From positions 3,618-67,617 of the forward strand of contig CAYWZQ010000009.1 of NCBI GenBank assembly GCA_964462875.1: a stretch of DNA of 64,000 bases, read 5' to 3'. Shown here piece after piece: positions 16,808 through 63,698 of this stretch. Both the position numbers and the translations under genes were made by a program. Numbering within the stretch: the first letter of the stretch is position 1; every line of letters begins with the position of its first letter. This stretch comes from an uncultured Nitrososphaerota archaeon. GTDB lineage: Archaea; Thermoproteota; Methanomethylicia; Culexarchaeales; Culexmicrobiaceae. The notes under the pieces were generated by a model that made no database searches, was not told the origin of the DNA, and saw only the letters and a list, made by a program, of their open reading frames with translations.

Positions 16808-17953
16808 CTATAGCAAATGCATTAAACTCACAATAAGTAAAGTACCAAGAAAGTCAGATAATGAACTAACGATGGGTATCACTAAGTTATCTGGATCCCA
16901 TCCCCTATTATAAGCCACAATTCCTATCACAAAAGAAACAGCCACCACCAATGGCACTCCGACCATGCCAACCATGATGCACAGCAGAATCATAGATTGC
17001 AAAACCACAGACAAGCCAATAGATATACAAAAAGCAAATGCAAGAGAACCATATAACGAATACAAGAGCAGTGATGAAGAGTAAACTCCTAGAACATCTA
17101 ATAATAAATACTTAAAAGACGACAAAGATGGATAAAGCAAGCCGAGTGCAAGACGAGTAGTGGTTAGAGAGCCAATAATGGAGCCGACAGCGCCCAAGGC
17201 ATTAAGCAATACTGGATAAACAACAATAACCTCAGGCTTCATTTGGATGGCATACTTATAATGAGCCAGAATAACTCCATTAATAACACCATCCAGACTA
17301 GTTAAGATCACCACTGGAGTCGCCTCCCTTATAGTTGAGCTATAAGACCGCAATTTCCAATCAGTTCTAGAGGCAATTAAAATAATTATTAAAAGCAAGA
17401 ATGCAAACAAGAGGAAAAGCGAGATAAAGTTACCTGTCAATGCAATGGTCAACAAAATAACTATTGAATAGCTCACTGCAACAAGTACATCATTCATGAT
17501 CGCAATCACGGGATAAACCACTACATCCGGGTCAAATCCCCTTCTGAAACTACTAAATGCCGTTACTAAGGTTATTGGCATGGATAGCCCCGTAGATAGT
17601 AGGCAAGCAACTATAGGTACCAATGCGAAATATGGTAGATCAGCTAAGCAGGCATTTTCAGCAAGAAAGTTTATTATAAACGTCAAGAAGCCCATCGCCA
17701 GTGAATCTATGTAAGTTAGTGCAAAAAGAGACTTAATCAATGCATAGAAATCCCTCGTATTACCAATAAATTTAGGTTCAACTTCACCGGTATGTAGCAT
17801 AGTTGAAATTCTACCAGAAAGAACACCACTAATATCGCCTCTAAGTGATAGAATCGATGGATATAAAGCGAGAATCCATGGAAGCGATATGAACAGGCCC
17901 TTAAAGCTAGAAATAACACCACCAGAAAACATACCACCAATACTAAAACTCAA
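16808..17953 (-). CDS. MgtE/SLC41-like divalent-cation transporter membrane domain (tandem repeat) that lacks the cytosolic N/CBS domains
   Basis: 381-aa polytopic protein with internally repeated halves. 'SLRGDISGVLSGRIST' resembles the MgtE pore motif. Lies next to the two PhoU/TrkA-C genes. Confidence 0.5.
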   Translation of the reverse strand: MSFSIGGMFSGGVISSFKGLFISLPWILALYPSILSLRGDISGVLSGRISTMLHTGEVEPKFIGNTRDFYALIKSLFALTYIDSLAMGFLTFIINFLAENACLADLPYFALVPIVACLLSTGLSMPITLVTAFSSFRRGFDPDVVVYPVIAIMNDVLVAVSYSIVILLTIALTGNFISLFLLFAFLLLIIILIASRTDWKLRSYSSTIREATPVVILTSLDGVINGVILAHYKYAIQMKPEVIVVYPVLLNALGAVGSIIGSLTTTRLALGLLYPSLSSFKYLLLDVLGVYSSSLLLYSLYGSLAFAFCISIGLSVVLQSMILLCIMVGMVGVPLVVAVSFVIGIVAYNRGWDPDNLVIPIVSSLSDFLGTLLIVSLMHLL

Positions 17954-26819: not shown

Positions 26820-27095
26820 TCAACCCCCAATTAGCTCAGCTAATTTAGAAAATTCTAATTCATTTAACTTGCTAGCAGCTTTCTCCGGTTCAATTTTCTT
26901 CGCAATATTAAGGAGGAACTCCAACCCATTAATGGTTGTAAACTTATCCTCCTGCCATAATCTTAGAAATGTTTTCGCCTCCTCGCTATCTATTTCATGG
27001 GACTTTTTTGATGATAGTATAACGTCTATTAAGGCTAAAGCAGCTTTGCGCCTACTACTCTTCGTCATTTCTCTAATTACATCTTTGATAACCAT
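26820..27095 (-). CDS. Small hypothetical hydrophilic protein upstream of mer
   Basis: 91-aa ORF with charged, helical-looking composition. Its stop is 6 nt before the mer start. Confidence 0.35.
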   Translation of the reverse strand: MVIKDVIREMTKSSRRKAALALIDVILSSKKSHEIDSEEAKTFLRLWQEDKFTTINGLEFLLNIAKKIEPEKAASKLNELEFSKLAELIGG

Positions 27096-27186
27096 TTACG
27101 AAACCCCCTAGAGAATTGATTTATACTGCTTAAATAGATAACTAAAGGGAAGCTTTGATTGCTATGTAATGGCGGGTTGAATTAAA

Positions 27187-27996
27187 TTGAAAATAGCTAT
27201 AACTGGCAAGGGTGGAGTTGGGAAAACAACAATTGCAGGTACACTTGCGAGGTTATTTGGTAGAACAGGCTTTAAAGTTATAGCTGTTGATGCAGATCCT
27301 AACACTAATCTAGCTTACACGCTTGGACTATCACATAGTATTGCATCTAAAATTCAGCCTCTAGCAGTTAATAGGAGACTTCTAAAAGAGCGTATGGAAG
27401 TTTATCCAGGAAGCCTTGATCAGGGATTCTTTAAGCTTTACCCTAAGGTTGATGACATAGTTGATACTTATGGTGTCAAGTGCCCGGATAACGTTACGCT
27501 CTTAGTTATGGGTACAGTTAGAGATGGAGGAACGGGATGTCTATGTCCAGCTCATGCACTTATGCGTGCAATATTAAGACACTTAATTTTAAAGACAAAC
27601 GAAATAGTAATTCTTGATATGGAAGCGGGGATAGAGCATTTAGCGAGAGGGACTGCGAGAGGTGTGGATTTAATGATAACTGTTGTCGAGCCGAATATGA
27701 AGGCAATAGATACTGCATGTAGAATTAAGAAGTTAGCATATGATATTGAAGTGAAGAGAGTTGCAGCAGTAGGTAATAAGGTTTCGTGTGAGGAAGAGAA
27801 GAGGTTTATTGAGGAAAGTTTAAAGTCAACTAAGCTTGAACTGCTCCAATTAATACCCTACGATGAACATGTAAAAATTGCCGATATGAAGAGAGCTTCA
27901 ATATTAGACTTGTACCCCAACTCACCGGTTGTAAAGGCAATTGAGGAATTGAGGAATAAGATAGTTGAAGTTATTTGGAGGAACCCTTCAACTTAA
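27187..27996 (+). CDS. cooC: CooC/AcsF-family nickel-insertion ATPase (CODH/ACS maturation factor)
   Basis: P-loop 'ITGKGGVGKTT', 'DADPNTNL' and the 'GCLCPAH' CxC metal motif typical of CooC. TTG start. Confidence 0.85.
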   Translation: MKIAITGKGGVGKTTIAGTLARLFGRTGFKVIAVDADPNTNLAYTLGLSHSIASKIQPLAVNRRLLKERMEVYPGSLDQGFFKLYPKVDDIVDTYGVKCPDNVTLLVMGTVRDGGTGCLCPAHALMRAILRHLILKTNEIVILDMEAGIEHLARGTARGVDLMITVVEPNMKAIDTACRIKKLAYDIEVKRVAAVGNKVSCEEEKRFIEESLKSTKLELLQLIPYDEHVKIADMKRASILDLYPNSPVVKAIEELRNKIVEVIWRNPST

Positions 27997-28321
27997 TCCA
28001 TAACTCCCTAACCATGTTCGATCCCATGGACTTAACTTCCTCCCATAAATGCTCAACCTCTTCACTGTATCTTCCACTCTTAATACACTCCTCATACTTA
28101 CTTAAGAAGCTGAACACAAGCCCTATCATAGGATGCTTGAAGAGCTGCAATTGCTCTTTCATAACATTAACTTCACGGATAATTGCTGATTCAACAACCT
28201 TCTCGTCACCTATAATATCTCTCAGAATAACGTTTCCATTACTGAACTTTGCGTATACAATGTCTGTCCCTACATCCTCAATTGAATCAATGCTCTTAGA
28301 TATCACCTTAAACTCGCACAT
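27971..28321 (-). CDS. CooT-like putative nickel-binding protein with a C-terminal extension
   Basis: If started at the internal 'MCEFKVISKSIDSIEDVGTDIVYAKFSNGNVILRDIIGDEKVV', it matches the CooT 'MC...KV' N-terminus with the conserved Cys2. It then carries ~55 extra C-terminal residues. The track ORF starts 4 codons earlier, at 28333. Confidence 0.45.
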   Translation of the reverse strand: MCEFKVISKSIDSIEDVGTDIVYAKFSNGNVILRDIIGDEKVVESAIIREVNVMKEQLQLFKHPMIGLVFSFLSKYEECIKSGRYSEEVEHLWEEVKSMGSNMVRELWIKLKGSSK

Positions 28322-28353
28322 GCAAATCACCAAAAATAGACACCATTCACCGC

Positions 28354-28383
28354 TTAAATTTTTAGCGATAGCTAAAAATTTAA
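28354..28383. promoter_or_regulatory. Perfect 13-bp inverted repeat with a 4-bp spacer, TTAAATTTTTAGC-gata-GCTAAAAATTTAA. Candidate operator overlapping the TATA/BRE region of the divergent cooT-like and rnfB-like-fwdB-like-hdrA promoters.
   Basis: Read directly from the sequence. The arms are exact reverse complements. It sits about 55 nt upstream of the ATG at 28438 and about 20 nt upstream of the cooT-like start. Confidence 0.5.
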
Positions 28384-28437
28384 TACGATGTTATGTAAAA
28401 TCCCTATGAGAGAAGGTAAAGTGCAGGGTTGTGGGAT

Positions 28438-28902
28438 ATGGTTAAACTCAATCCAATGCAGATATTCAAACTGCTACCAAGAACAAATTGTAAAAAATGT
28501 GGTTATACGTGTATGGCATTTGCAGTTAAGCTTCTACAGAAAGAAGTTAGACTGGAGGATTGCGAGCCACTCTTCACGGATCCAAAGTATTCTAGTAACC
28601 TCGAGAAGCTGAAAGAGCTATTAAAACCTCTATTTGAAGCTGCTGAGACATTGATTAAAATCGATGAAGAGAAGTGCATTGGATGCGGTAATTGCATAAT
28701 TGCATGCCCAGCTAATGTTAGTATTGACCCTGAAGTAGGTAGAGGCATTAATCCGGTTAATGAGGAGGTAGTGTTCACCGTAATTGATGGTAAAATTAAG
28801 GTTTTAAACCTTGAGAAGTGTCGAAGATATCCTCCCCATAGAATGAACTGTAGGATATGTGAGGAAGTTTGCTTTAGTGGAGCTATTAAGGTGGTTGCAT
28901 GA
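28438..28902 (+). CDS. RnfB-like iron-sulfur protein: N-terminal CFeSP/RnfB-type [4Fe-4S] domain plus a 2x[4Fe-4S] ferredoxin domain (FwdG-like)
   Basis: 'LLPRTNCKKCGYTCMAFAVKLLQKEVRLEDC' follows a CX2CX3CX16C pattern like the CdhE/RnfB N-terminal domain. It is followed by 'CIGCGNCIIACP' and a second cluster motif. The track starts at the TTG at 28429. Confidence 0.7.
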   Translation: MVKLNPMQIFKLLPRTNCKKCGYTCMAFAVKLLQKEVRLEDCEPLFTDPKYSSNLEKLKELLKPLFEAAETLIKIDEEKCIGCGNCIIACPANVSIDPEVGRGINPVNEEVVFTVIDGKIKVLNLEKCRRYPPHRMNCRICEEVCFSGAIKVVA

Positions 28903-30149
28903 AGAAGTTTACTAATGTAGTATGTACTGGATGCTCTCTTGCATGTAGTGACCTAGTTGTTGAAGTTGAAGATAGTAGAGTGGAAAGGGTTTGGGGAGCT
29001 TGTAGCCATGGAGTAAAGCGTATAAAGGAGCTACCTGCAAAAAGATTGAAAAGTAATTTAAGTGTAAATGAATTGATCGACAAGGCGATTGATCTATTGA
29101 GAAAATCGAGAAAGCCCTTAATTTATGGATTTACTTCAAGTACAATTGAAACCATAAAAATAGGTCTATCGATCGCTGAAAAATTGAATGGAGTTTTTGA
29201 TAGTGAGCCAAGTATATGTCAACTACATATACCAATATCATTTGAAGTAGGCTTAAAGGAAGTTGGATTCGAAGAAGTTCTCGAGAAATCAGACTTCATA
29301 ATATACGCCTTCACCAACATAGCCAGTACTCATCTCAGACATGCAAGCAAATACGCCGTCTATCCTAGAGGGGAGTATGTTAAATCTGGTAAGGAGAGCA
29401 GAATTGTTATGACAATCAACTATAGAATGAATGATACCACTAAAATAGCTCAGCACAACATTAAAGTGGAGCTCGGTAAGGAAGTTGAAGCAATAGCTTC
29501 ATTGAAGAAGCTATTAATCGACGAAGAGCTGAAAGCGTCAGAGAAACTAGGTTTAACACGAGAAGCAGCCCTCCTCTTACTTAATGACTTTAAAGCTTCA
29601 ACTTACACCTCAATATTCGTGGGGCACCATCTACTATCTAGCATTTCAGCTAAAGAAGCCTACCACGAGATAGCTAGTCTCGTAAAAGAGATTGAAGAGA
29701 GAAAGGTTGCTACTTTAATACCACTTGCTGAAGAACTGAATTCCATGGGGGTAGCTAGAATTCTCTATGAAAAATATGGTGCCACACATGCATTAGAGTT
29801 CAAGAATGGGAAAGCGGAAAGCAATCCTACAGTTACAAGTGCATTTTCGAAGTTGATGAGGGAAGAGTTCGACTTAGCACTAATCGTTGGAAGCGATTTA
29901 TTTACATGCATCCCGCTTAGTGTAGCTGTAAAGCTTAAGAAGATACCAGTAATCTATGTTGGGTGTAGGAAAACTTTAATCTCAAAAGTTGCCAATGTAA
30001 GCATCCCAACTTTAATAGTCGGATTAGAGAGTGGAGGAGAGATAGTCAGGTCTGATGGTGTCAGAGTAGAGCTTACTCCGTTTCTAAATCCCCCACCAAG
30101 CATTTTAAGTGAAGAGGAGATTTTAAGTGAGATTTTAAGAGGGCTCTAG
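28899..30149 (+). CDS. Formylmethanofuran dehydrogenase subunit B-like molybdopterin oxidoreductase (second FwdB/FmdB paralog)
   Basis: N-terminal 'NVVCTGCSLACSDLVV' CxxCxxxC [4Fe-4S] motif as in FwdB. ~416 aa matches FwdB length. Assignment is at family level only. Confidence 0.55.
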   Translation: MKKFTNVVCTGCSLACSDLVVEVEDSRVERVWGACSHGVKRIKELPAKRLKSNLSVNELIDKAIDLLRKSRKPLIYGFTSSTIETIKIGLSIAEKLNGVFDSEPSICQLHIPISFEVGLKEVGFEEVLEKSDFIIYAFTNIASTHLRHASKYAVYPRGEYVKSGKESRIVMTINYRMNDTTKIAQHNIKVELGKEVEAIASLKKLLIDEELKASEKLGLTREAALLLLNDFKASTYTSIFVGHHLLSSISAKEAYHEIASLVKEIEERKVATLIPLAEELNSMGVARILYEKYGATHALEFKNGKAESNPTVTSAFSKLMREEFDLALIVGSDLFTCIPLSVAVKLKKIPVIYVGCRKTLISKVANVSIPTLIVGLESGGEIVRSDGVRVELTPFLNPPPSILSEEEILSEILRGL

Positions 30150-30150
30150 A

Positions 30151-32520
30151 TTGGTGGCGGGTAGAGATCTAAAGATTGCAGTTCTCATATGCAGGTGCGG
30201 CACAAACATAGCTGGAGTAGTAGATGTCGATTATTTAGTTAAAGAGATATCGCGTGTTGATGGCGTGGTTTGCTATGAGCATGAACACTGGTGTAGTGAA
30301 GATGGACTTCTCAAAATGCGTGAAGTAATTAAAGATGAAAAACCAGATAGAGTAGTCATCGCGGCTTGCACGCCACATCTGCATGAAGAGCTTTTCAGAG
30401 AAAACGCTGAGAAAGCTGGTTTAAATGGTGGATACGTGAAAGTAGTCAACATAAGGGAGCAATGTAGCTGGGTTCATTATAGAGAGCCGAGGAGAGCAAC
30501 CATTAAGGCTTTAGAATTAATTAGAGCTGCTATTGCAGCTGCTCCTTACTTTAGTCCCATTAAGAAAATTAAAGTTCCCATTACTAAGAAAGCTCTCGTA
30601 ATTGGAGGTGGAGTTTCCGGAATAACAGCTTCACTCTCACTAGCTGAAAAAGGTATTGAGGTTTATCTCGTGGAAAGAGAGGGATTCCTTGGAGGCCATA
30701 TGGCTAAACTTGATAAAGTTTTCCCAACAATGGACTGCAGCATTTGCATTCTTGGGCCATTAATGTCGAAGACTTACTCTCACCCTAAAATTAAAGTTTT
30801 AACGTTAAGTGAAGTGAAGGAAGTTGAAGGTGTACCAGGCAACTTCAGAGTTAAGATATTGAAGAGACCGAGATATGTTGACGAAGATAAGTGTAATGGA
30901 TGTAATAAGTGCTTGGAAGTATGCCCAATAGAAGTTCCAAATGAATATAATTATGGGCTAGGATACAGGAAGGCTATTGTGAAACCAGTTGCTGAAACTG
31001 TTCCAATTGCACCATACATTGACATGAAAAACTGTATTCTATGCATGTCATGTGCTGGAGTTTGCGAAAAAGAGGCAATAGATTTTGATCAGAAAGAAGA
31101 GCTTATAGAGCTCAACGTGGGGACAATAATTCTAGCGACAGGATTTGAAATTATAGATCCAAAGGAACTTGAAGAGTATGGTTATGGCAAATTTAGAAAT
31201 GTCATTTTAGGTATCGAATTGGAAAGACTTGTTAACCCGGATGGGCCTACAAGGGGTAGGGTCATTAGAATAAGTGATGGAAAGCCCGTAAGACGGGCAG
31301 CAATAATTCTATGTGCTGGATCCAGAGATGAAAGACACCTCCCATATTGTTGCAAGTTTGGTTGCATGGCCGGATTAAAACACGCAGTTTACTTAACAAG
31401 TTTAATTCCAAAAATTGAAGTTTACATTTTATATACGGATATTAGGGCAGCAGGTAAAGGATTCGAGGAATTTTATCAAAGAGTTAGGCGACTAGAAAAC
31501 GTCCATTTCATTAGAGGCAAGCCTTGTGAAATACTTGAGGATAGTGATGGAAGCATTAAAATACAAGTGTTTGACACCATAGCAGAGGAGCTATTTGAAC
31601 TGAAAGTCGATTTACTAATTCTTGAAGCTGGAATTGTACCTTCAAAGGGAACTAGCGAATTGTCGAAAATGCTTAAAATACCATTAAGCCCTGAGGGATT
31701 CTTCATGGAGTTTCATCCAAAGCTGAGACCAGCTGAAACATTTATTCATGGAGTATTCCTTGCTGGTGCATGCCAAGGACCAAAAGACATATCTGATAGC
31801 GTGTCTCATGCGGGCTTAGCAGCCTCTAAAGCAGCAACTCTGTTAATGTCTGAGAGCTTGGAGCTCCAAGTCCAAGCACCAGAAGTTGACACAAATAAAT
31901 GTGTTAAGTGCGGGCTCTGCGTTATATCCTGCGATTATAATGCCATAAAATTGACTAGAGAAGGCCCGGTGATAGCAACTGAACTCTGCGGTGGATGTCA
32001 AGCATGTGTAGCAGCCTGTCCTACTGGAGCGCTCAAACCAGTAGTGGATTTGAGTAATGAAGCAATATCAGCTATGATAGGGGAGCTGTTAAGGGAGAAG
32101 AGCGAGTATCCATTAATCATAGTGTTTGCATGTAAGTGGTGCGGTTATGAAGCGTTAGACTATGCGGGTGTAAATAGAATACCATATCCGACCGGTGTGA
32201 GAGTGATAGAGGTTACATGCTCTGCTAGAGTTAATCCAATACATATCCTCGAAGCATTGAAACTAGGTGCTGATGGAGTACTAATAATTGGGTGTAGAGA
32301 GCAAGACTGCCACTATAGAACTGGAAGGATTAGAGCCAATAGAAAACTTAATGCTTTAAAGGAAGCTCTAAAGCTTATAGGGATAAATCCAGATAGAGTT
32401 AAGATCATTGGTGCAGGGGCATCTGAAGGCGAAGAAGCAGCTAAGAAAATAACTGAATTTATTGAGGAAATAAAGAAAATTGGACCTTTAGGAACCGAAT
32501 TTGGGCGGGAGAAACTGTGA
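30151..32520 (+). CDS. hdrA: Heterodisulfide reductase subunit A with a C-terminal MvhD-like domain (HdrA-MvhD fusion)
   Basis: N-terminal Cys-rich domain, FAD fold 'ALVIGGGVSGITASLSLA', inserted and C-terminal 2x[4Fe-4S] motifs, and C-terminal 'ACKWCGYEALDYAG...CSARVNP...IIGCREQDCHY', which is MvhD-like. Confidence 0.85.
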   Translation: MVAGRDLKIAVLICRCGTNIAGVVDVDYLVKEISRVDGVVCYEHEHWCSEDGLLKMREVIKDEKPDRVVIAACTPHLHEELFRENAEKAGLNGGYVKVVNIREQCSWVHYREPRRATIKALELIRAAIAAAPYFSPIKKIKVPITKKALVIGGGVSGITASLSLAEKGIEVYLVEREGFLGGHMAKLDKVFPTMDCSICILGPLMSKTYSHPKIKVLTLSEVKEVEGVPGNFRVKILKRPRYVDEDKCNGCNKCLEVCPIEVPNEYNYGLGYRKAIVKPVAETVPIAPYIDMKNCILCMSCAGVCEKEAIDFDQKEELIELNVGTIILATGFEIIDPKELEEYGYGKFRNVILGIELERLVNPDGPTRGRVIRISDGKPVRRAAIILCAGSRDERHLPYCCKFGCMAGLKHAVYLTSLIPKIEVYILYTDIRAAGKGFEEFYQRVRRLENVHFIRGKPCEILEDSDGSIKIQVFDTIAEELFELKVDLLILEAGIVPSKGTSELSKMLKIPLSPEGFFMEFHPKLRPAETFIHGVFLAGACQGPKDISDSVSHAGLAASKAATLLMSESLELQVQAPEVDTNKCVKCGLCVISCDYNAIKLTREGPVIATELCGGCQACVAACPTGALKPVVDLSNEAISAMIGELLREKSEYPLIIVFACKWCGYEALDYAGVNRIPYPTGVRVIEVTCSARVNPIHILEALKLGADGVLIIGCREQDCHYRTGRIRANRKLNALKEALKLIGINPDRVKIIGAGASEGEEAAKKITEFIEEIKKIGPLGTEFGREKL

Positions 32521-33800
32521 GCATTGAAAAACCAACTTTACAGTTAATAGAATTCAATCACATCATAAAGTATGAGTGGGTAGCTCCGAAGCTTATTAAG
32601 AGATTGAAGTACTTTAAAGATAAATGCAACGGCTGTGGATTATGCGTAGAAGTTTGCCCTGTAAATGCAATAATGCTTGGTCCCGTAAAAGAGGTTGCAT
32701 CTGGAGAAATGGAGGCACCACTAATAATAATCGATGAAACCAAATGCATAGCGTGCCCTTTATGCATGCTGATATGTCCATTAAATGCCATAGTACTTGA
32801 ACACGAAAAGATACTTGAGTACCCAAAAGTTGAAGGTGAAATCAAAGTAGATAAGGAAAAATGCATACCGTGCCTGTTATGCGAGAAGATATGCCCACTT
32901 AAGGCCATAGAGGTTGAAGTTAAAGTTCCTAAAAAGGATGAACTTGTTAAGTACGTGTCTGATGAAAAATGGGCCGAGGGGTCCATATTTATAAACGAGG
33001 AAAAGTGCGTTTACTGTGGACTTTGTGAACTGCTGTGTGATGCTATAAAAATTTATTGGAGCGAACCAAAACCGCCAGAGTATAGGCCAGCACTTGGCAT
33101 TGTAATTGACGAAAGTAAGTGTGATTACTGTGAGCTATGTGAAGAAATATGCCCAGTTGATGCAATTAAGGTTGAATGCACTTCTTCAGCCCCAAGAAAA
33201 ATATTTAAAGTATCGATATCTGGTGAAGTTAAAATTGATAGAGATAAGTGTGTTTATTGTGGTTTATGCGAACATGTCTGTCCAGTTGAGGCGATGGAAG
33301 TTGAGAGAGCACTTGAAGGTAGAATTGAGCTAGTGAACTTGGAGAAATGCGATCCATCAGGATGCAAAAACTGCATCAACATTTGTCCAACTAATGCAAT
33401 ATTCGCGAGAAAAAAGGAGAAAGGTATCAGTATTAGCGATAAAAGTTGTATATACTGTGGAGCCTGTGAAAATGCTTGTCCGGAGCAGGTAATTGAGGTG
33501 AGAATTTCTAAGATTAAAGTTAAAGGAAGGAAAAGTCCGCATGACGAAGCTTTAAGGAAGCACTTAATGAAGGTTATTGAGGACTATGAAATTCCTAAGC
33601 CAGAGATTTACATTAGAGAAGTTAAGCCTCCGGAAATTAAAGTAGAATTACCTGAGGCTATGGAAGTGCCTCCTAAGCCTGAGGGGTACGATACTGCAAG
33701 AAAGGCTATTGACGAGTTACTAGGGCACTTACGGAGTAGTAAGACGAGAATTCTACTTGAATTAGGGAAAATAGATAAATTGAAGGAGGTTATAGTTTGA
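32517..33800 (+). CDS. Polyferredoxin with 8 predicted [4Fe-4S] clusters (FwdF/MvhB-like)
   Basis: Eight CxxCxxCxxxCP-type motifs, for example 'CNGCGLCVEVCP', 'CIACPLCMLICP', 'CVYCGLCEHVCP', 'CIYCGACENACP'. Confidence 0.85.
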   Translation: MSIEKPTLQLIEFNHIIKYEWVAPKLIKRLKYFKDKCNGCGLCVEVCPVNAIMLGPVKEVASGEMEAPLIIIDETKCIACPLCMLICPLNAIVLEHEKILEYPKVEGEIKVDKEKCIPCLLCEKICPLKAIEVEVKVPKKDELVKYVSDEKWAEGSIFINEEKCVYCGLCELLCDAIKIYWSEPKPPEYRPALGIVIDESKCDYCELCEEICPVDAIKVECTSSAPRKIFKVSISGEVKIDRDKCVYCGLCEHVCPVEAMEVERALEGRIELVNLEKCDPSGCKNCINICPTNAIFARKKEKGISISDKSCIYCGACENACPEQVIEVRISKIKVKGRKSPHDEALRKHLMKVIEDYEIPKPEIYIREVKPPEIKVELPEAMEVPPKPEGYDTARKAIDELLGHLRSSKTRILLELGKIDKLKEVIV

Positions 33801-44281: not shown

Positions 44282-44373
44282 ACAAAACACCACAATTCAT
44301 CATTTTTCATGTTAAATTTAATATTAAAAATTGAAATTAAAATTGATTAGTAGAGGAGAAGAGCAGTGGAAGA

Positions 44374-45819
44374 ATGATCGAGGAAACACGTGTATGGCCA
44401 TGGATCATTCCATTACCAATTGAAGGCGAAAAGCACTATAAGGTGCTACTATCAGTGTTTAAGTCTAAGGCGACACTGGACATTTTAAAGAACATTAAGT
44501 TAAATGGAAAAACCTATCAGTCAGACTTAATTAGAAAGCTTCCATACTCAAATAAAACAGTCATCTGCAAATTGAGGGAGCTAGTTAGAAGTAAGATATT
44601 GGAGCAAGGAGTTGAAAGAAAGATTATTAGAGGAAGAAGCGTTCGCGTGAATTGGTTTAAACCGACACCTCTTGGAAGATGGCTAATAACATTTCTAACT
44701 CCGCCGAGCGAAATGAAGCCTGAAAATATTGAGAAAACCTTAAGCCAATTATTCAAATTATACATCAAAAGTATAACTAGGCTATGTGCAAATTATGGAT
44801 TTGACATATCCGAGTACCATCAAGAACTAGAGGAAGAGTACATAAAGGAACTTATTCAAATAGCTGCTAGAAGACGAGGAAAAGAAGAAATTGATGCTAC
44901 GGTTGTCGGCTCAATTTCACTAGATATTACCGTTTCATTCCACGAAATGCCGAAAACGGATGCAGCTGCAATAGCAAAAATAGTAAAAGTAGCTTCAGGA
45001 GGATCCGCCGCTAATGTGGCAATTGCATTAACTAGACTTGGACTCAAGACATCCTTTATGGGTAAAGTTGGAACTGATGAAGCAAGTAGAATAGCATTAA
45101 CTGAACTAGCAAGTGAAGGCGTCGATATATCGCCAGTAAAAGTTGTTAGAGGAGCAACTTTACCAAAATCAATAGTTTTCATTGAAAAGAGTACTAAGAG
45201 AATATTAACAATAACCGATGAGAAAGCACTATCACTAAGTTCACCGGAAGAAGTAGATTGGGAAGCCATAGACTTAAGTAAAATCATTTACATAGGCGAG
45301 ACATATACCGAAATAGCCTCCATAATAGCATCTTATGCTAAGGCTAAAGGTAAAATTGTGATCTACAGACTATTAACTCCATACGCAAAAATGGGGCTAA
45401 GTAAACTTAAGGGCGTACTCGCAAATTCAAATTACGTAATAATGAACGAAGTTAGCTGGAAGATTTTGAGAGAAACATCAAAAAACATAGTGACACCCCA
45501 CAGCTTAATACTTAATTATGGCGTAGATGGATTGATAATTACTAGAGGAGGAAAAGGAGTCACAGGGTATACTGGTAGAGGAAAACTTTCACTTCCAGCG
45601 ATAAAAATTGGAGATGTAGTGGACACAACTGGAGCAGGCGATGCATTCTCAGCTGCATTTATTTGGGCGTTAATTGGAGGCTCAAGCTTTGAAAAAGCAG
45701 TTAAGATAGCGAATATAGCTGCAGCAATGTCCACAACAAAGCTTGGAGCTAAGGATAGCATGCCAACAATTAATGAGCTTAGAAAGCTACTTGCCTCAAG
45801 ACCTTCCCTTCAGGTATAA
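44374..45819 (+). CDS. Fusion of an N-terminal winged-helix DNA-binding domain with a PfkB/ribokinase-family sugar or nucleoside kinase
   Basis: C-terminal 'VDTTGAGDAFSAAFIWALIGG' PfkB motif and N-terminal 'GGSAANVAIALTRLG'. The first ~170 aa, 'YQSDLIRKLPYSNKTVICKLRELVRSKILEQG', are wHTH-like. Confidence 0.75.
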   Translation: MIEETRVWPWIIPLPIEGEKHYKVLLSVFKSKATLDILKNIKLNGKTYQSDLIRKLPYSNKTVICKLRELVRSKILEQGVERKIIRGRSVRVNWFKPTPLGRWLITFLTPPSEMKPENIEKTLSQLFKLYIKSITRLCANYGFDISEYHQELEEEYIKELIQIAARRRGKEEIDATVVGSISLDITVSFHEMPKTDAAAIAKIVKVASGGSAANVAIALTRLGLKTSFMGKVGTDEASRIALTELASEGVDISPVKVVRGATLPKSIVFIEKSTKRILTITDEKALSLSSPEEVDWEAIDLSKIIYIGETYTEIASIIASYAKAKGKIVIYRLLTPYAKMGLSKLKGVLANSNYVIMNEVSWKILRETSKNIVTPHSLILNYGVDGLIITRGGKGVTGYTGRGKLSLPAIKIGDVVDTTGAGDAFSAAFIWALIGGSSFEKAVKIANIAAAMSTTKLGAKDSMPTINELRKLLASRPSLQV

Positions 45820-48027: not shown

Positions 48028-48867
48028 GTGAGTGAAAGGGTTGTAAAGATTAGCATTATCAAAGTCGGGTGCATTGGCTGCAGTCCACTACTAGATTACA
48101 TGCTTGATGAAAGAGCTGACAGAACGGACATAGATGTGCGGGTTTTTGGTTCCGGATCTAAGCTCGATGAAGCAAGAGCTGAAGATGTTGCCAAAAGAGC
48201 TCTAGAATTCAATCCAGATCTAGTGATTATATCGACTCCAAATGCAGCATTACCAGGACCAGCCAAGGCAAGAAACATTGTAGCTGAAAAGGGAATTCCA
48301 TGCATTATAGTGACAGATGCACCTTCAAAGAAGATCGCTAAGGAACTAAAGGAAAAGGGATTTGGCTACATAATAGTTGAAGCAGATTCAATGCTAGGTG
48401 CTAGAAGGGAGTTTCTGGATCCAATTGAAATGACGATCTACAATGCGGACCTAATTAAAGTTCTTTCAGTCACCGGTGCATTTCGAGTAGTCATTGAAGC
48501 CATAGACAAGGTCATTGAAGCCATTAAGAAAGGTGAAAAACCAGAACTCCCTGCAATCACTGTTAATAGGGACACTGCAATCAAAGCAGCTGAATTTAAT
48601 AATCCATATGCTAAAGCCAAGGCCATGGCCGCATGGGAAATGAGCAAACGAGTAGCCGATTTAACTACAAAGGCCTGCTTTGTAGTTAAAGAATGGGAAG
48701 TATATACATCCCTATGCGCAGCAGCTCATGAACTAATGAGAGAAGCCGCGAAATTAGCTGATGAAGCCAGAGAAATTGAAAAATATGGTGATTACCTCGT
48801 CAGAAAACCACATAGCAAATCCGGAGCCATACTGAGAAAAGCAAAGTTAATTGAAAAGCCAAAATAG
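48028..48867 (+). CDS. mtd: F420-dependent methylenetetrahydromethanopterin dehydrogenase
   Basis: 'VKISIIKVGCIGCSPLLDYMLDERADR', 'LPGPAKARNI', 'GFGYIIVEADSMLGARREFLDPIEM' and 'KVLSVTGAFRVV' match Mtd. GTG start. Confidence 0.9.
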   Translation: MSERVVKISIIKVGCIGCSPLLDYMLDERADRTDIDVRVFGSGSKLDEARAEDVAKRALEFNPDLVIISTPNAALPGPAKARNIVAEKGIPCIIVTDAPSKKIAKELKEKGFGYIIVEADSMLGARREFLDPIEMTIYNADLIKVLSVTGAFRVVIEAIDKVIEAIKKGEKPELPAITVNRDTAIKAAEFNNPYAKAKAMAAWEMSKRVADLTTKACFVVKEWEVYTSLCAAAHELMREAAKLADEAREIEKYGDYLVRKPHSKSGAILRKAKLIEKPK

Positions 48868-62501: not shown

Positions 62502-62991
62502 AGCCAAGCTTCTTAGTATCTGGGTTAAGGCACCAATACTTAAGGGAGCAGATATACTCTTGGTCAGTGAATGCGTCAAGTACGTAAATCCCAAAATTCT
62601 CAAGGAAATCGGTAAAGGAAAAACAATTCTAACCTACTGTCCAGAACGGGAAGGAGCTATGGGTTATGGTAAGCTGGCCTCGATAATTAGAGCTTCAAAG
62701 CCAAAAAGCATAACTGTCCTAACCATAGATGGATCGCCACACTGCATTCAACTTCACGCAGCAGTCAATGAAGCAATATTCGATACTGCGGAGCAAATAA
62801 GGCAGGAACACTTTGTGCTAGTTGATGGCATCCAATTAGTTAAAATAGCACCCGATGCAGTTAGAGTTGCGAGATACCTGAGTTTGGTTCAAAAGCTAAT
62901 TAATGAGAAACCAGATATTCTCAGAGAGCTTGAAAAACACAGTCTAGAATATAAGTCTTCGATTAAAATGAAGCTTGAAAAACACAGTTAA
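62494..62991 (+). CDS. Hypothetical protein co-operonic with thiC
   Basis: 165-aa ORF. Its start overlaps the thiC stop by 8 nt. No recognisable motif. Confidence 0.45.
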
Positions 62992-63698
62992 TCTTCAAGA
63001 AAAACTTCAACGGTTACTTCATCACCATCTTCCAATTGCAACACATCCCTCAGCTTTTTGGGAGAGATTACTTCAATGACATCATCACCATAATGCGTGC
63101 GCTCTATAAGTATAATAGCACCGTCAACACCGTTTATTTTAGCTCTGAAGCACTTAGCACCACCATAAGTTCGCTTTCCATCGGAAAAGCCCTTAATTTC
63201 AATTCCAGGCAGAATTTTTAGCAACTTCTTCACCTCGAGATCATAAATACTTTTCAACTTCAAATTTAGTGTCCCAGCATATGGCTTGAAACCTAGCTTC
63301 TCAGAGAACTGATTATAGTAGTGCGGTATGGACATGTAATACGCACCTTCGCCAAAACCAGTAAAAACATAGCCTCTAATAATGAAGGAACGCGGTATTT
63401 CAGAGAACAGCTTTCTTAAATTCACATACACATCTCTTAGCACACTTATTCCCTTCTCCGTTATCTTTATAAACTGCCCTCTCTTCGAAATCTCTCTAAC
63501 TATTAAATTCAGCTCTTCAAGCTCCTTCAATCTCCTTGAAGCTGTTTGCTGAGACACGCCTAAAACTTCTCCCAACTGCTTTGAAGCAATTAATATTGGC
63601 TTCCAGCATCCACCGAGTAAAGCTATTTTGTATAGTGTTATGAAGTACTTGTCCTTCACACTATACAATATTGAGATAAATAAGATATACTTAATCAA
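62988..63698 (-). CDS. RbkR-type regulator: HTH domain fused to a CTP-dependent archaeal riboflavin kinase (MJ0056 family)
   Basis: 'SKQLGEVLGVSQQTASRRLKELEELNLI' HTH. C-terminal 'GYVFTGFGEGAYYMSIPHY...PYAGTLNLKL' riboflavin-kinase beta-barrel motifs. Confidence 0.75.
   Translation of the reverse strand: MIKYILFISILYSVKDKYFITLYKIALLGGCWKPILIASKQLGEVLGVSQQTASRRLKELEELNLIVREISKRGQFIKITEKGISVLRDVYVNLRKLFSEIPRSFIIRGYVFTGFGEGAYYMSIPHYYNQFSEKLGFKPYAGTLNLKLKSIYDLEVKKLLKILPGIEIKGFSDGKRTYGGAKCFRAKINGVDGAIILIERTHYGDDVIEVISPKKLRDVLQLEDGDEVTVEVFLED

Follow-up and report, generated by a model that had tools for sequence, protein, structure and literature searches.

Archaeal promoters take their direction from an A-rich BRE, archaeal transcription terminates at oligo-T tracts, and archaeal repressors commonly bind palindromes that overlap the BRE and TATA elements. 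Regulators of the TrmB family, the Lrp family, and the MDR1 type are examples whose repressor operators overlap BRE/TATA in this way. In P. furiosus, the promoter consensus consists of a BRE, RRAAA, at -36 to -32, a TATA element, WTTTAAAW, at -30 to -23, and a YR initiator (PMC6640164). The BRE of T. kodakarensis is CGAAA (bioRxiv 10.1101/2020.01.31.928960). Bidirectional promoters that share a TATA element, arranged as BRE-TATA-BRE with starts ~50-52 bp apart, have been documented in the Thermococcales (PMC6640164; bioRxiv 10.1101/2020.01.31.928960). Here, we analyze a divergent gene pair in a 64-kb stretch of DNA, which we call the window and which is part of a metagenome contig. The source organism is a Culexarchaeia-type member of the Thermoproteota; its relatives carry the labels Methanomethylicota/Verstraetearchaeota, and one of their lineages is Ca. 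Culexmicrobium profundum (PMC9723716). The gap of 116 bp between the two divergent genes holds a perfect palindrome, which an earlier note on this DNA had read as the binding site of a dimeric regulator. We find that the element is functional and conserved and that it is an ordinary instance of a known element type. It is probably a compact divergent core promoter, in which two mirror-image archaeal modules are placed back to back. To our knowledge, no promoter data exist for the Culexarchaeia, whose Culexmicrobium members related to this organism were described from hydrothermal sediment of the Guaymas Basin.

Gene Context of the Palindrome

The palindrome lies between the ATG at 28321 on the minus strand and the ATG at 28438 on the plus strand, which is the spot where the BRE/TATA sets of both divergent promoters had been expected in the earlier note, and this placement is borne out. 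The minus-strand gene (27971-28321) encodes a CooT-like protein of 116 aa with a Met-Cys N-terminus, a CooT domain (Pfam CooT, E = 1.4e-7), and a C-terminal helical hairpin. The AlphaFold2 model of this nickel-chaperone gene product has a pLDDT of 94.9, and Foldseek matches it to the CooT structures 6fan and 5n76. The protein is about twice the usual CooT length and consists of the CooT beta-domain followed by the hairpin, a conserved stretch of ~55 aa in which Cys79 is invariant and Trp93 and Trp108 are nearly invariant. It falls in a subfamily of 110-120-aa proteins comprising about 25 clusters. Automatic calls put the start of the cooT-like gene at a GTG at 28306, by which the Met-Cys nickel-binding N-terminus is lost.

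On the plus strand, an operon (28438-33800) encodes an FeS-domain/ferredoxin protein, a FwdB-like protein, an HdrA-MvhD fusion, and a polyferredoxin, as assigned from Pfam, the gene calls on the source contig, and synteny in relatives. The FwdB-like protein (416 aa, 28899-30149) has no Pfam match. The order of the genes in this operon is conserved beside cooC/cooT and the cdh operon, and the operon may constitute a putative, uncharacterised electron-bifurcating module. On the other side, a cooC-like gene converges on cooT, followed by a FwdD-like gene and the cdh (CODH/ACS) operon on the minus strand. The 3' ends of the cooC-like and cooT-like genes overlap by 26 bp (27971-27996), and the same layout is found in all related loci. 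A conserved open reading frame of 91 aa (26820-27095, minus strand; pLDDT of the single-sequence model 93.9) lies between the gene of a luciferase-like (Mer-like) protein and cooC. Enzymes of the methyl branch of the Wood-Ljungdahl pathway are encoded in the rest of the window: Ftr, Mtd, a molybdopterin-type protein with FwdD-/FwdB-like domains, and the luciferase-like (Mer-like) protein.

Sequence and Chance Expectation of the Palindrome

The 30 bases at 28354-28383, TTAAATTTTTAGCGATAGCTAAAAATTTAA, form an exact 13-4-13 palindrome of the composition TTAAATTTTTAGC-GATA-GCTAAAAATTTAA. Its two 13-nt arms are exactly complementary, just as the earlier note had described, and within the 4-nt spacer the inner A-T also pairs, so that 14 of the 15 pairs are complementary. 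Folded as single-stranded DNA, the palindrome has an energy of -11.3 kcal/mol (z = -5.2). When the window was shuffled 300 times with its dinucleotides preserved, perfect repeats of this kind (inverted, 13-nt arms, loop no longer than 10 nt) arose at 0.013 per 64 kb, and the same rate extrapolated to a genome of 1.5-2 Mb gives ~0.3-0.4 such repeats. The symmetry, which had been called unusual, is therefore unusual for one 64-kb window and not for a whole genome. The mtd coding sequence (48028-48867) contains, at 48660-48690, another perfect inverted repeat with 13-nt arms, TTTAACTACAAAG-gcctg-CTTTGTAGTTAAA, and the shuffles therefore probably underestimate the true frequency of such repeats. 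Given the genome-wide expectation and this second repeat, exactness alone is weak evidence of function. Judged from the sequences compared below, conservation is a stronger argument than exactness against a chance origin.

Conservation across Six Lineages

The syntenic cooC/cooT/FeS-operon locus was compared in six lineages, the window and five others. These are L002 (also seen as L013 and L022), L004 (also seen as L005-7 and L068-70), L071/72, L008 (also seen as L009-11 and L073/74), and L075-77. A further locus, L003 (P0002), has its CooT-like gene inside a cdh operon and no divergent promoter, and so tells nothing about the palindrome. L002 is the sister of the window, with 72% identity in CooT and 61% in the FwdB-like protein, and the L004 and L008 lineages are more distant, with 51-54% identity in these proteins (CooT, FwdB-like). 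The core that reads TTAAATTTTTAGC GATA GCTAAAAATTTAA in the window reads ATAAATTTTTAGC GATA GCTAAAAATTTAT in L002, TTAAATTTTTTGC ATTC ACCAAAAATTTAT in both L004 and L071, TTTAAGTTTTTTGTGCAGTAGCAAAATTTAAAA in L008, and CTTAAGTTTTTTATGTTAATAGCAAAATTTAAAA in L075.

A 28-bp core of the palindrome (28355-28382) is identical in the window and L002, in a gap that has otherwise diverged. Over the 15 kb of the window included in the comparison, only one exact run common to the two is longer. By comparison, only 38% of the four-fold degenerate sites of the adjacent gene are identical, and the element is therefore under selection and pure chance is excluded. L004 and L071 likewise have an exact core of 33 bp in common. 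The earlier note had held that chance symmetry would become more likely if the motif were not conserved upstream of orthologous operons and had no further copies; conservation is found in L002, and no copies were found in the window, the related loci, or a metagenome scan, so that one half of this condition applies. Both arms are kept in all six lineages in the form of an A4-6 run and [T/C]TTA[A/T], the left arm always being a T-run with TTAA and the right arm an A-run with TTTAA.

The symmetry itself follows a different course. The window and L002 each have 14 complementary pairs out of 15, and L004/L071 have 10 out of 15 at the homologous position. L008/L075 show no notable dyad there, their best-scoring dyads lying elsewhere in the gap. 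Perfect symmetry and the centre AGC-GATA-GCT are thus confined to the window and L002, and the comparison in related genomes that the earlier note had proposed bears out the arms in six lineages and the dyad with its centre only in L002. The difference in the outermost pair, T..A in the window and A..T in L002, was considered as a compensatory change and rejected, the outgroup L004/L071 having T..T; single changes from T to A, at sites where only A or T occurs, account for it, and it is no evidence of selection for pairing.

The innermost bases, C-GATA-G (28366-28371, no strand), lie between the two BRE-like elements described below and are identical in the window and L002. The corresponding centre of L004/L071, GCATTCAC, differs from C-GATA-G. 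The close relatives L008 and L075 have GTGCAGT and ATGTTAAT, respectively, which is a length change of 1 bp with both arms unchanged. The form GC-N4-GC occurs in the window/L002 clade and in L008, and L004/L071 have GC-N4-AC. The 6-bp centre falls outside the consensus BRE and yet is identical in the window and L002, for which the chance at a neutral identity of 0.38 is ~0.003-0.02. This identity hints at some extra constraint, for example from a regulator or from contacts that the initiation complex may make upstream.

Proposed Promoter Modules and Predicted Starts

We infer that the two arms are BRE/TATA elements from their resemblance to known elements, their position, and their conserved geometry. 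Read toward its own gene, the right arm is CTAAA-A-ATTTAATA and the left arm CTAAA-A-ATTTAAGC, with the general form CTAAA-A-ATTTAAKM. The right module (28372-28385, plus strand) is predicted to serve the FeS/FwdB-like/HdrA operon and consists of the BRE-like CTAAA, one base, and the TATA-like ATTTAATA. The left module (28352-28365, minus strand), which would serve the cooT-like gene, is its mirror image, with CTAAA, A, and ATTTAAGC. The right arm agrees with the BRE/TATA consensus at 10 of 13 positions and the left arm, counted by hand, at 9 of 13; both are moderate matches, the consensus being that of P. furiosus, which may differ from the host's own. Against WTTTAAAW, the TATA-like 8-mers score 7/8 for ATTTAATA (28378-28385, plus strand) and 6/8 for ATTTAAGC (28359-28352, minus strand), and both have equivalents in all six lineages. 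The BRE-like words on the inner side, over all lineages, are CTAAA, CCAAA, CAAAA, TAAAA, or AGCAA, and these fit CGAAA/RRAAA only in the AAA. The A-rich element is always on the inner side of the TATA-like element and the outer flanks are variable; outward firing is therefore predicted. Across the six lineages, the TATA-like element precedes the ATG by 57-61 nt on the operon side and by 38-41 nt on the cooT side, so that position and orientation are preserved throughout.

Sites that score at least 10/13 on the Pyrococcus pattern are only about two-fold enriched in intergenic DNA here. A home-made expectation-maximisation motif search over 25 upstream regions returned a TAAAG-CTTAAAT form on which both arms score low; the search was unstable and over-fitted. 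The 8-mer ATTTAAGC also occurs 43 nt upstream of the minus-strand gene that starts at 17953. Upstream of the HTH-PfkB gene lies an AT-rich quasi-palindrome, ATTTTTCATGTTAAATTTAATATTAAAAAT (44302-44331), in which the right-arm 10-mer AAATTTAATA recurs, as nowhere else in the window. Its TTTAATA starts 57 nt before the HTH-PfkB ATG, and the corresponding distance for the FeS gene is 59 nt.

Start sites were predicted for all six lineages with the spacing known from P. furiosus (TATA at -30 to -23). The predicted start of the operon falls on a TA-R-G (TA[T/A/G]G-type) element in each of the six, so that the leader measures a constant 27-31 nt and includes, ahead of the ATG, a motif resembling GGAG/GGTG. 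In the window, this start would lie in the block TATGAGAGAA (28405-28414, plus strand), which is conserved between the window and L002 and in which T28407/G28408 provides a pyrimidine-purine step at the exact predicted +1. For cooT, the predicted leader is 8-11 nt in the six lineages, and motifs of the GTGAT/GTGGAT type are found 5-12 nt before its ATG in all of them. The block at 28323-28338 on the minus strand (plus strand AAATCACCAAAAATA, minus strand TATTTTTGGTGATTT), identical in the window and L002, contains a Shine-Dalgarno-like GGTGAT and the predicted start near 28328-28331. The T/G steps on this side, 28329/28328 and 28332/28331, are 1-3 bp from the predicted +1. Outward firing thus puts the predicted cooT start at or inside the conserved GGTGAT motif.

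The proposed order of elements is TATA-BRE-6 bp-BRE-TATA, in which each module would be a BRE-like A-run followed by a TATA-like TTTAA. TBP/TFB bound to the right module would start transcription of the FeS/FwdB-like/HdrA-MvhD/polyferredoxin operon near 28408, with a leader of ~30 nt that carries a Shine-Dalgarno-like motif. TBP/TFB on the left module would start the cooT-like transcript near 28328-28331, with a leader of 8-11 nt. Both modules follow a consensus of approximately GCWAAAAATTTAW and are therefore nearly each other's reverse complement. Exact palindromy would then need agreement at only a few free positions, and the two modules would simply happen to be identical in the window/L002 clade. 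Nothing found here requires a special regulator site.

A neighboring divergent gap, between the 91-aa gene and cooC (27096-27186), provides a control. It contains two back-to-back TATA-like boxes that are 3 bp apart, ATTTATA-CTG-CTTAAAT. The core of this gap includes an exact block of 22 bp, TTGATTTATACTGCTTAAATAG, in the window and L002, and 40 of 43 positions agree by hand count. Apart from these two promoter cores, the window and L002 have no intergenic exact run of at least 17 bp in common. A non-palindromic neighbor core is thus nearly as conserved as the palindrome, whose conservation is therefore ordinary for promoter cores in this group and by itself no pointer to a regulator. Since ordinary promoter cores are among the longest exact stretches shared, conservation alone cannot separate a promoter from an operator.

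Weighing of Alternative Explanations

The palindrome could instead be the operator of a dimeric factor that binds across the centre and both BRE-like elements, occludes or recruits TBP/TFB on both sides, and thereby co-regulates cooT and the Hdr/Fwd-like operon, an explanation that we consider unlikely. It is compatible with the arms also serving as promoter elements, and in its favor are the perfect dyad symmetry with a 4-bp spacer, the identity of the 28-bp core including spacer and centre in L002 although synonymous sites are saturated, the exact 33-bp core of L004 and L071, and the recurrence of the GC-N4-GC centre in the window/L002 clade and L008. However, the dyad and centre are not kept across the orthologous loci, the length of the centre varies between L008 and L075, and the non-palindromic neighboring promoter core is similarly conserved. 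A second site was also found neither in the 64 kb, nor in the related loci, nor in a metagenome scan. In the window, the half-site GCTAAAAATTTAA (at most two mismatches) and the inner dyad TTAGC-N4-GCTAA (at most one mismatch) do not exceed the shuffle expectation, and chance also suffices for a half-site-like GCTGAAAATATAA that precedes the cdhA ATG by 13-25 nt. Nor do the loci taken from relatives contain copies of the half-site or inner dyad beyond chance. The metagenome scan for AATTTTTAGC-N4-GCTAAAAATT (exact 20-base match) gave 50 matches, of which the only related ones, L013 and L022, are the same L002-lineage locus and the others are unrelated hairpins in unrelated organisms. The search for further half-sites suggested in the earlier note has therefore yielded none beyond chance in the window, the related loci, and the metagenome scan. 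As the note had observed, no regulator gene is adjacent, and the HTH proteins of the window are far off (wHTH-FeoA, 908-1537; HTH-PfkB, 44374-45819; MarR-riboflavin kinase, 62988-63698). Two neighboring products were considered as regulators and rejected. A role of the CooT-like protein as a nickel-sensing autoregulator through its C-terminal extension finds no counterpart in the AlphaFold2 model, in which the beta-domain is followed by a plain two-helix hairpin and for which Foldseek returned only CooT and, weakly, ATP synthase epsilon-like topologies and no DNA-binding fold. The 91-aa neighbor is a six-helix bundle that matches no PDB structure, no DNA-binding fold, and no Pfam family. That the operon can have a dedicated regulator is shown by more distant relatives, in which a TrmB-family winged-helix gene of 116 aa (L062, 3569-3919; L064, 3571-3921) lies directly upstream of the same FeS/FwdB-like/HdrA operon, but the window has no homologue of this protein. 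In these relatives (L062-L065), the FeS protein is ~65% identical and cooT is not adjacent to the operon. A dimeric operator linking a nickel-maturation gene to the Hdr/Fwd-like operon, as the earlier note had envisaged it, is thus neither required nor favored, with the perfect dyad kept only in L002 and no further copies found in the sequences searched. In its narrower form, a putative operator made of the centre and both BRE-like elements in this Culexarchaeia clade, where one dimer seated between the two initiation complexes would switch both promoters, the proposal is again rather doubtful. If true, such a dimer would couple the supply of the CooT-like nickel chaperone to the HdrA-MvhD/FwdB-like redox complex beside the CODH/ACS genes.

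The same elements might also fire inward across one another, so that each gene would be transcribed from the arm farther from it and the starts would lie ~29 bp apart. Or one of the arms might fire in both directions as BRE-TATA-BRE, with starts ~50 bp apart. The two initiation complexes would then overlap and compete. We regard either version as improbable. Read rightward, the left arm is CGCTTAAATT and carries CTTAAAT at 28353, and this is the commonest TATA-like word upstream of the window's genes (23046 and 41496, where the orientation is unambiguous, and 27129, 43448, and 47983). A promoter in the far arm would also give cooT a leader of ~33 nt that contains GGTGAT, TTAA-centred TATA elements are nearly symmetric, and bidirectional promoters with a shared TATA are known from the Thermococcales. 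On the other hand, the outer flanks (TCACCG in the window, CATCAT in L002, AGGGAG in L004, and GTTATTG in L071) are neither A-rich nor conserved, whereas the inner A-runs are invariant. The left arm is 85 nt from the FeS ATG, as against 40-75 nt for the other CTTAAAT promoters of the window, and the conserved TA-R-G element with its constant leader of 27-31 nt fits outward firing. The palindrome does not have a single TATA flanked by two BREs; the centres of its two TATA-like elements are separated by 24 bp, and the A-rich elements lie within that interval. Least probable is that the element is a hairpin or oligo-T insulator, stopping read-through or antisense transcription into the opposite gene, or an AT-rich symmetry of no function. 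There are T5 runs on both strands (28359-28363, plus; 28374-28378, minus), the DNA hairpin is stable at the energy given above, and the extrapolated genome-wide number of such repeats would allow exactness alone to arise by chance. Yet both flanking genes point away from the element, where no gene ends. Four of the six lineages have not kept the stem, and 28 identical bp at a neutral identity of 0.38 rule out pure chance. Structured RNA and terminators were rejected as candidates, the gene orientations being unsuitable and Rfam giving no match at E ≤ 1 locally, nor at the gathering score over the whole window.

Comparison with Known Systems

With the back-to-back promoter as the preferred reading, the locus is predicted to be a clean and conserved example of a TATA-BRE-BRE-TATA divergent promoter in the uncultured class Culexarchaeia. 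The starts and leaders predicted for the cooT-like gene and the FeS/FwdB-like/HdrA-MvhD operon can be tested by metatranscriptomes. The locus also carries a caution for genome scans: in AT-rich archaea, head-to-head genes with near-consensus BRE/TATA elements can mimic operators by long, even perfect palindromes. Were a regulator nevertheless to bind the centre, it would connect the maturation of nickel enzymes with what may be an electron-bifurcating module of the archaeal Wood-Ljungdahl pathway.

Like the operators of the TrmB, Lrp, and MDR1-type regulators, the element is a palindrome of ~30 bp placed on core promoter elements. Unlike them, it has no second site among the sequences searched, and its dyad is kept only in the sister lineage L002. 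We know of no operator motif of these families that matches the half-site. The resemblance to the P. furiosus core promoter lies in an A-rich element directly upstream of a TTTAA-type 8-mer, located 38-60 nt before the start codon, in a pyrimidine-purine step at the predicted +1, and in conservation at orthologous loci (PMC6640164). It departs from that promoter in that its BRE-like part is CTAAA and not RRAAA and in that ATTTAATA and ATTTAAGC are off WTTTAAAW at 1-2 positions each. As in the shared-TATA promoters of the Thermococcales, symmetric AT-rich elements would drive divergent transcription from a very short piece of DNA. In contrast to these, the palindrome has its BRE-like elements enclosed by a pair of TATA-like ones (TATA-BRE-BRE-TATA), its predicted starts are ~77-80 bp apart, and both of its transcripts would be protein-coding, whereas one of the two is a sterile antisense RNA in the Thermococcales. 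A further likeness is within the window itself, where the 91-aa/cooC promoter shares the back-to-back TATA-like boxes, the short divergent gap, and the exact block in L002. The boxes of that promoter are 3 bp apart and differ in sequence, and so they form no long palindrome.
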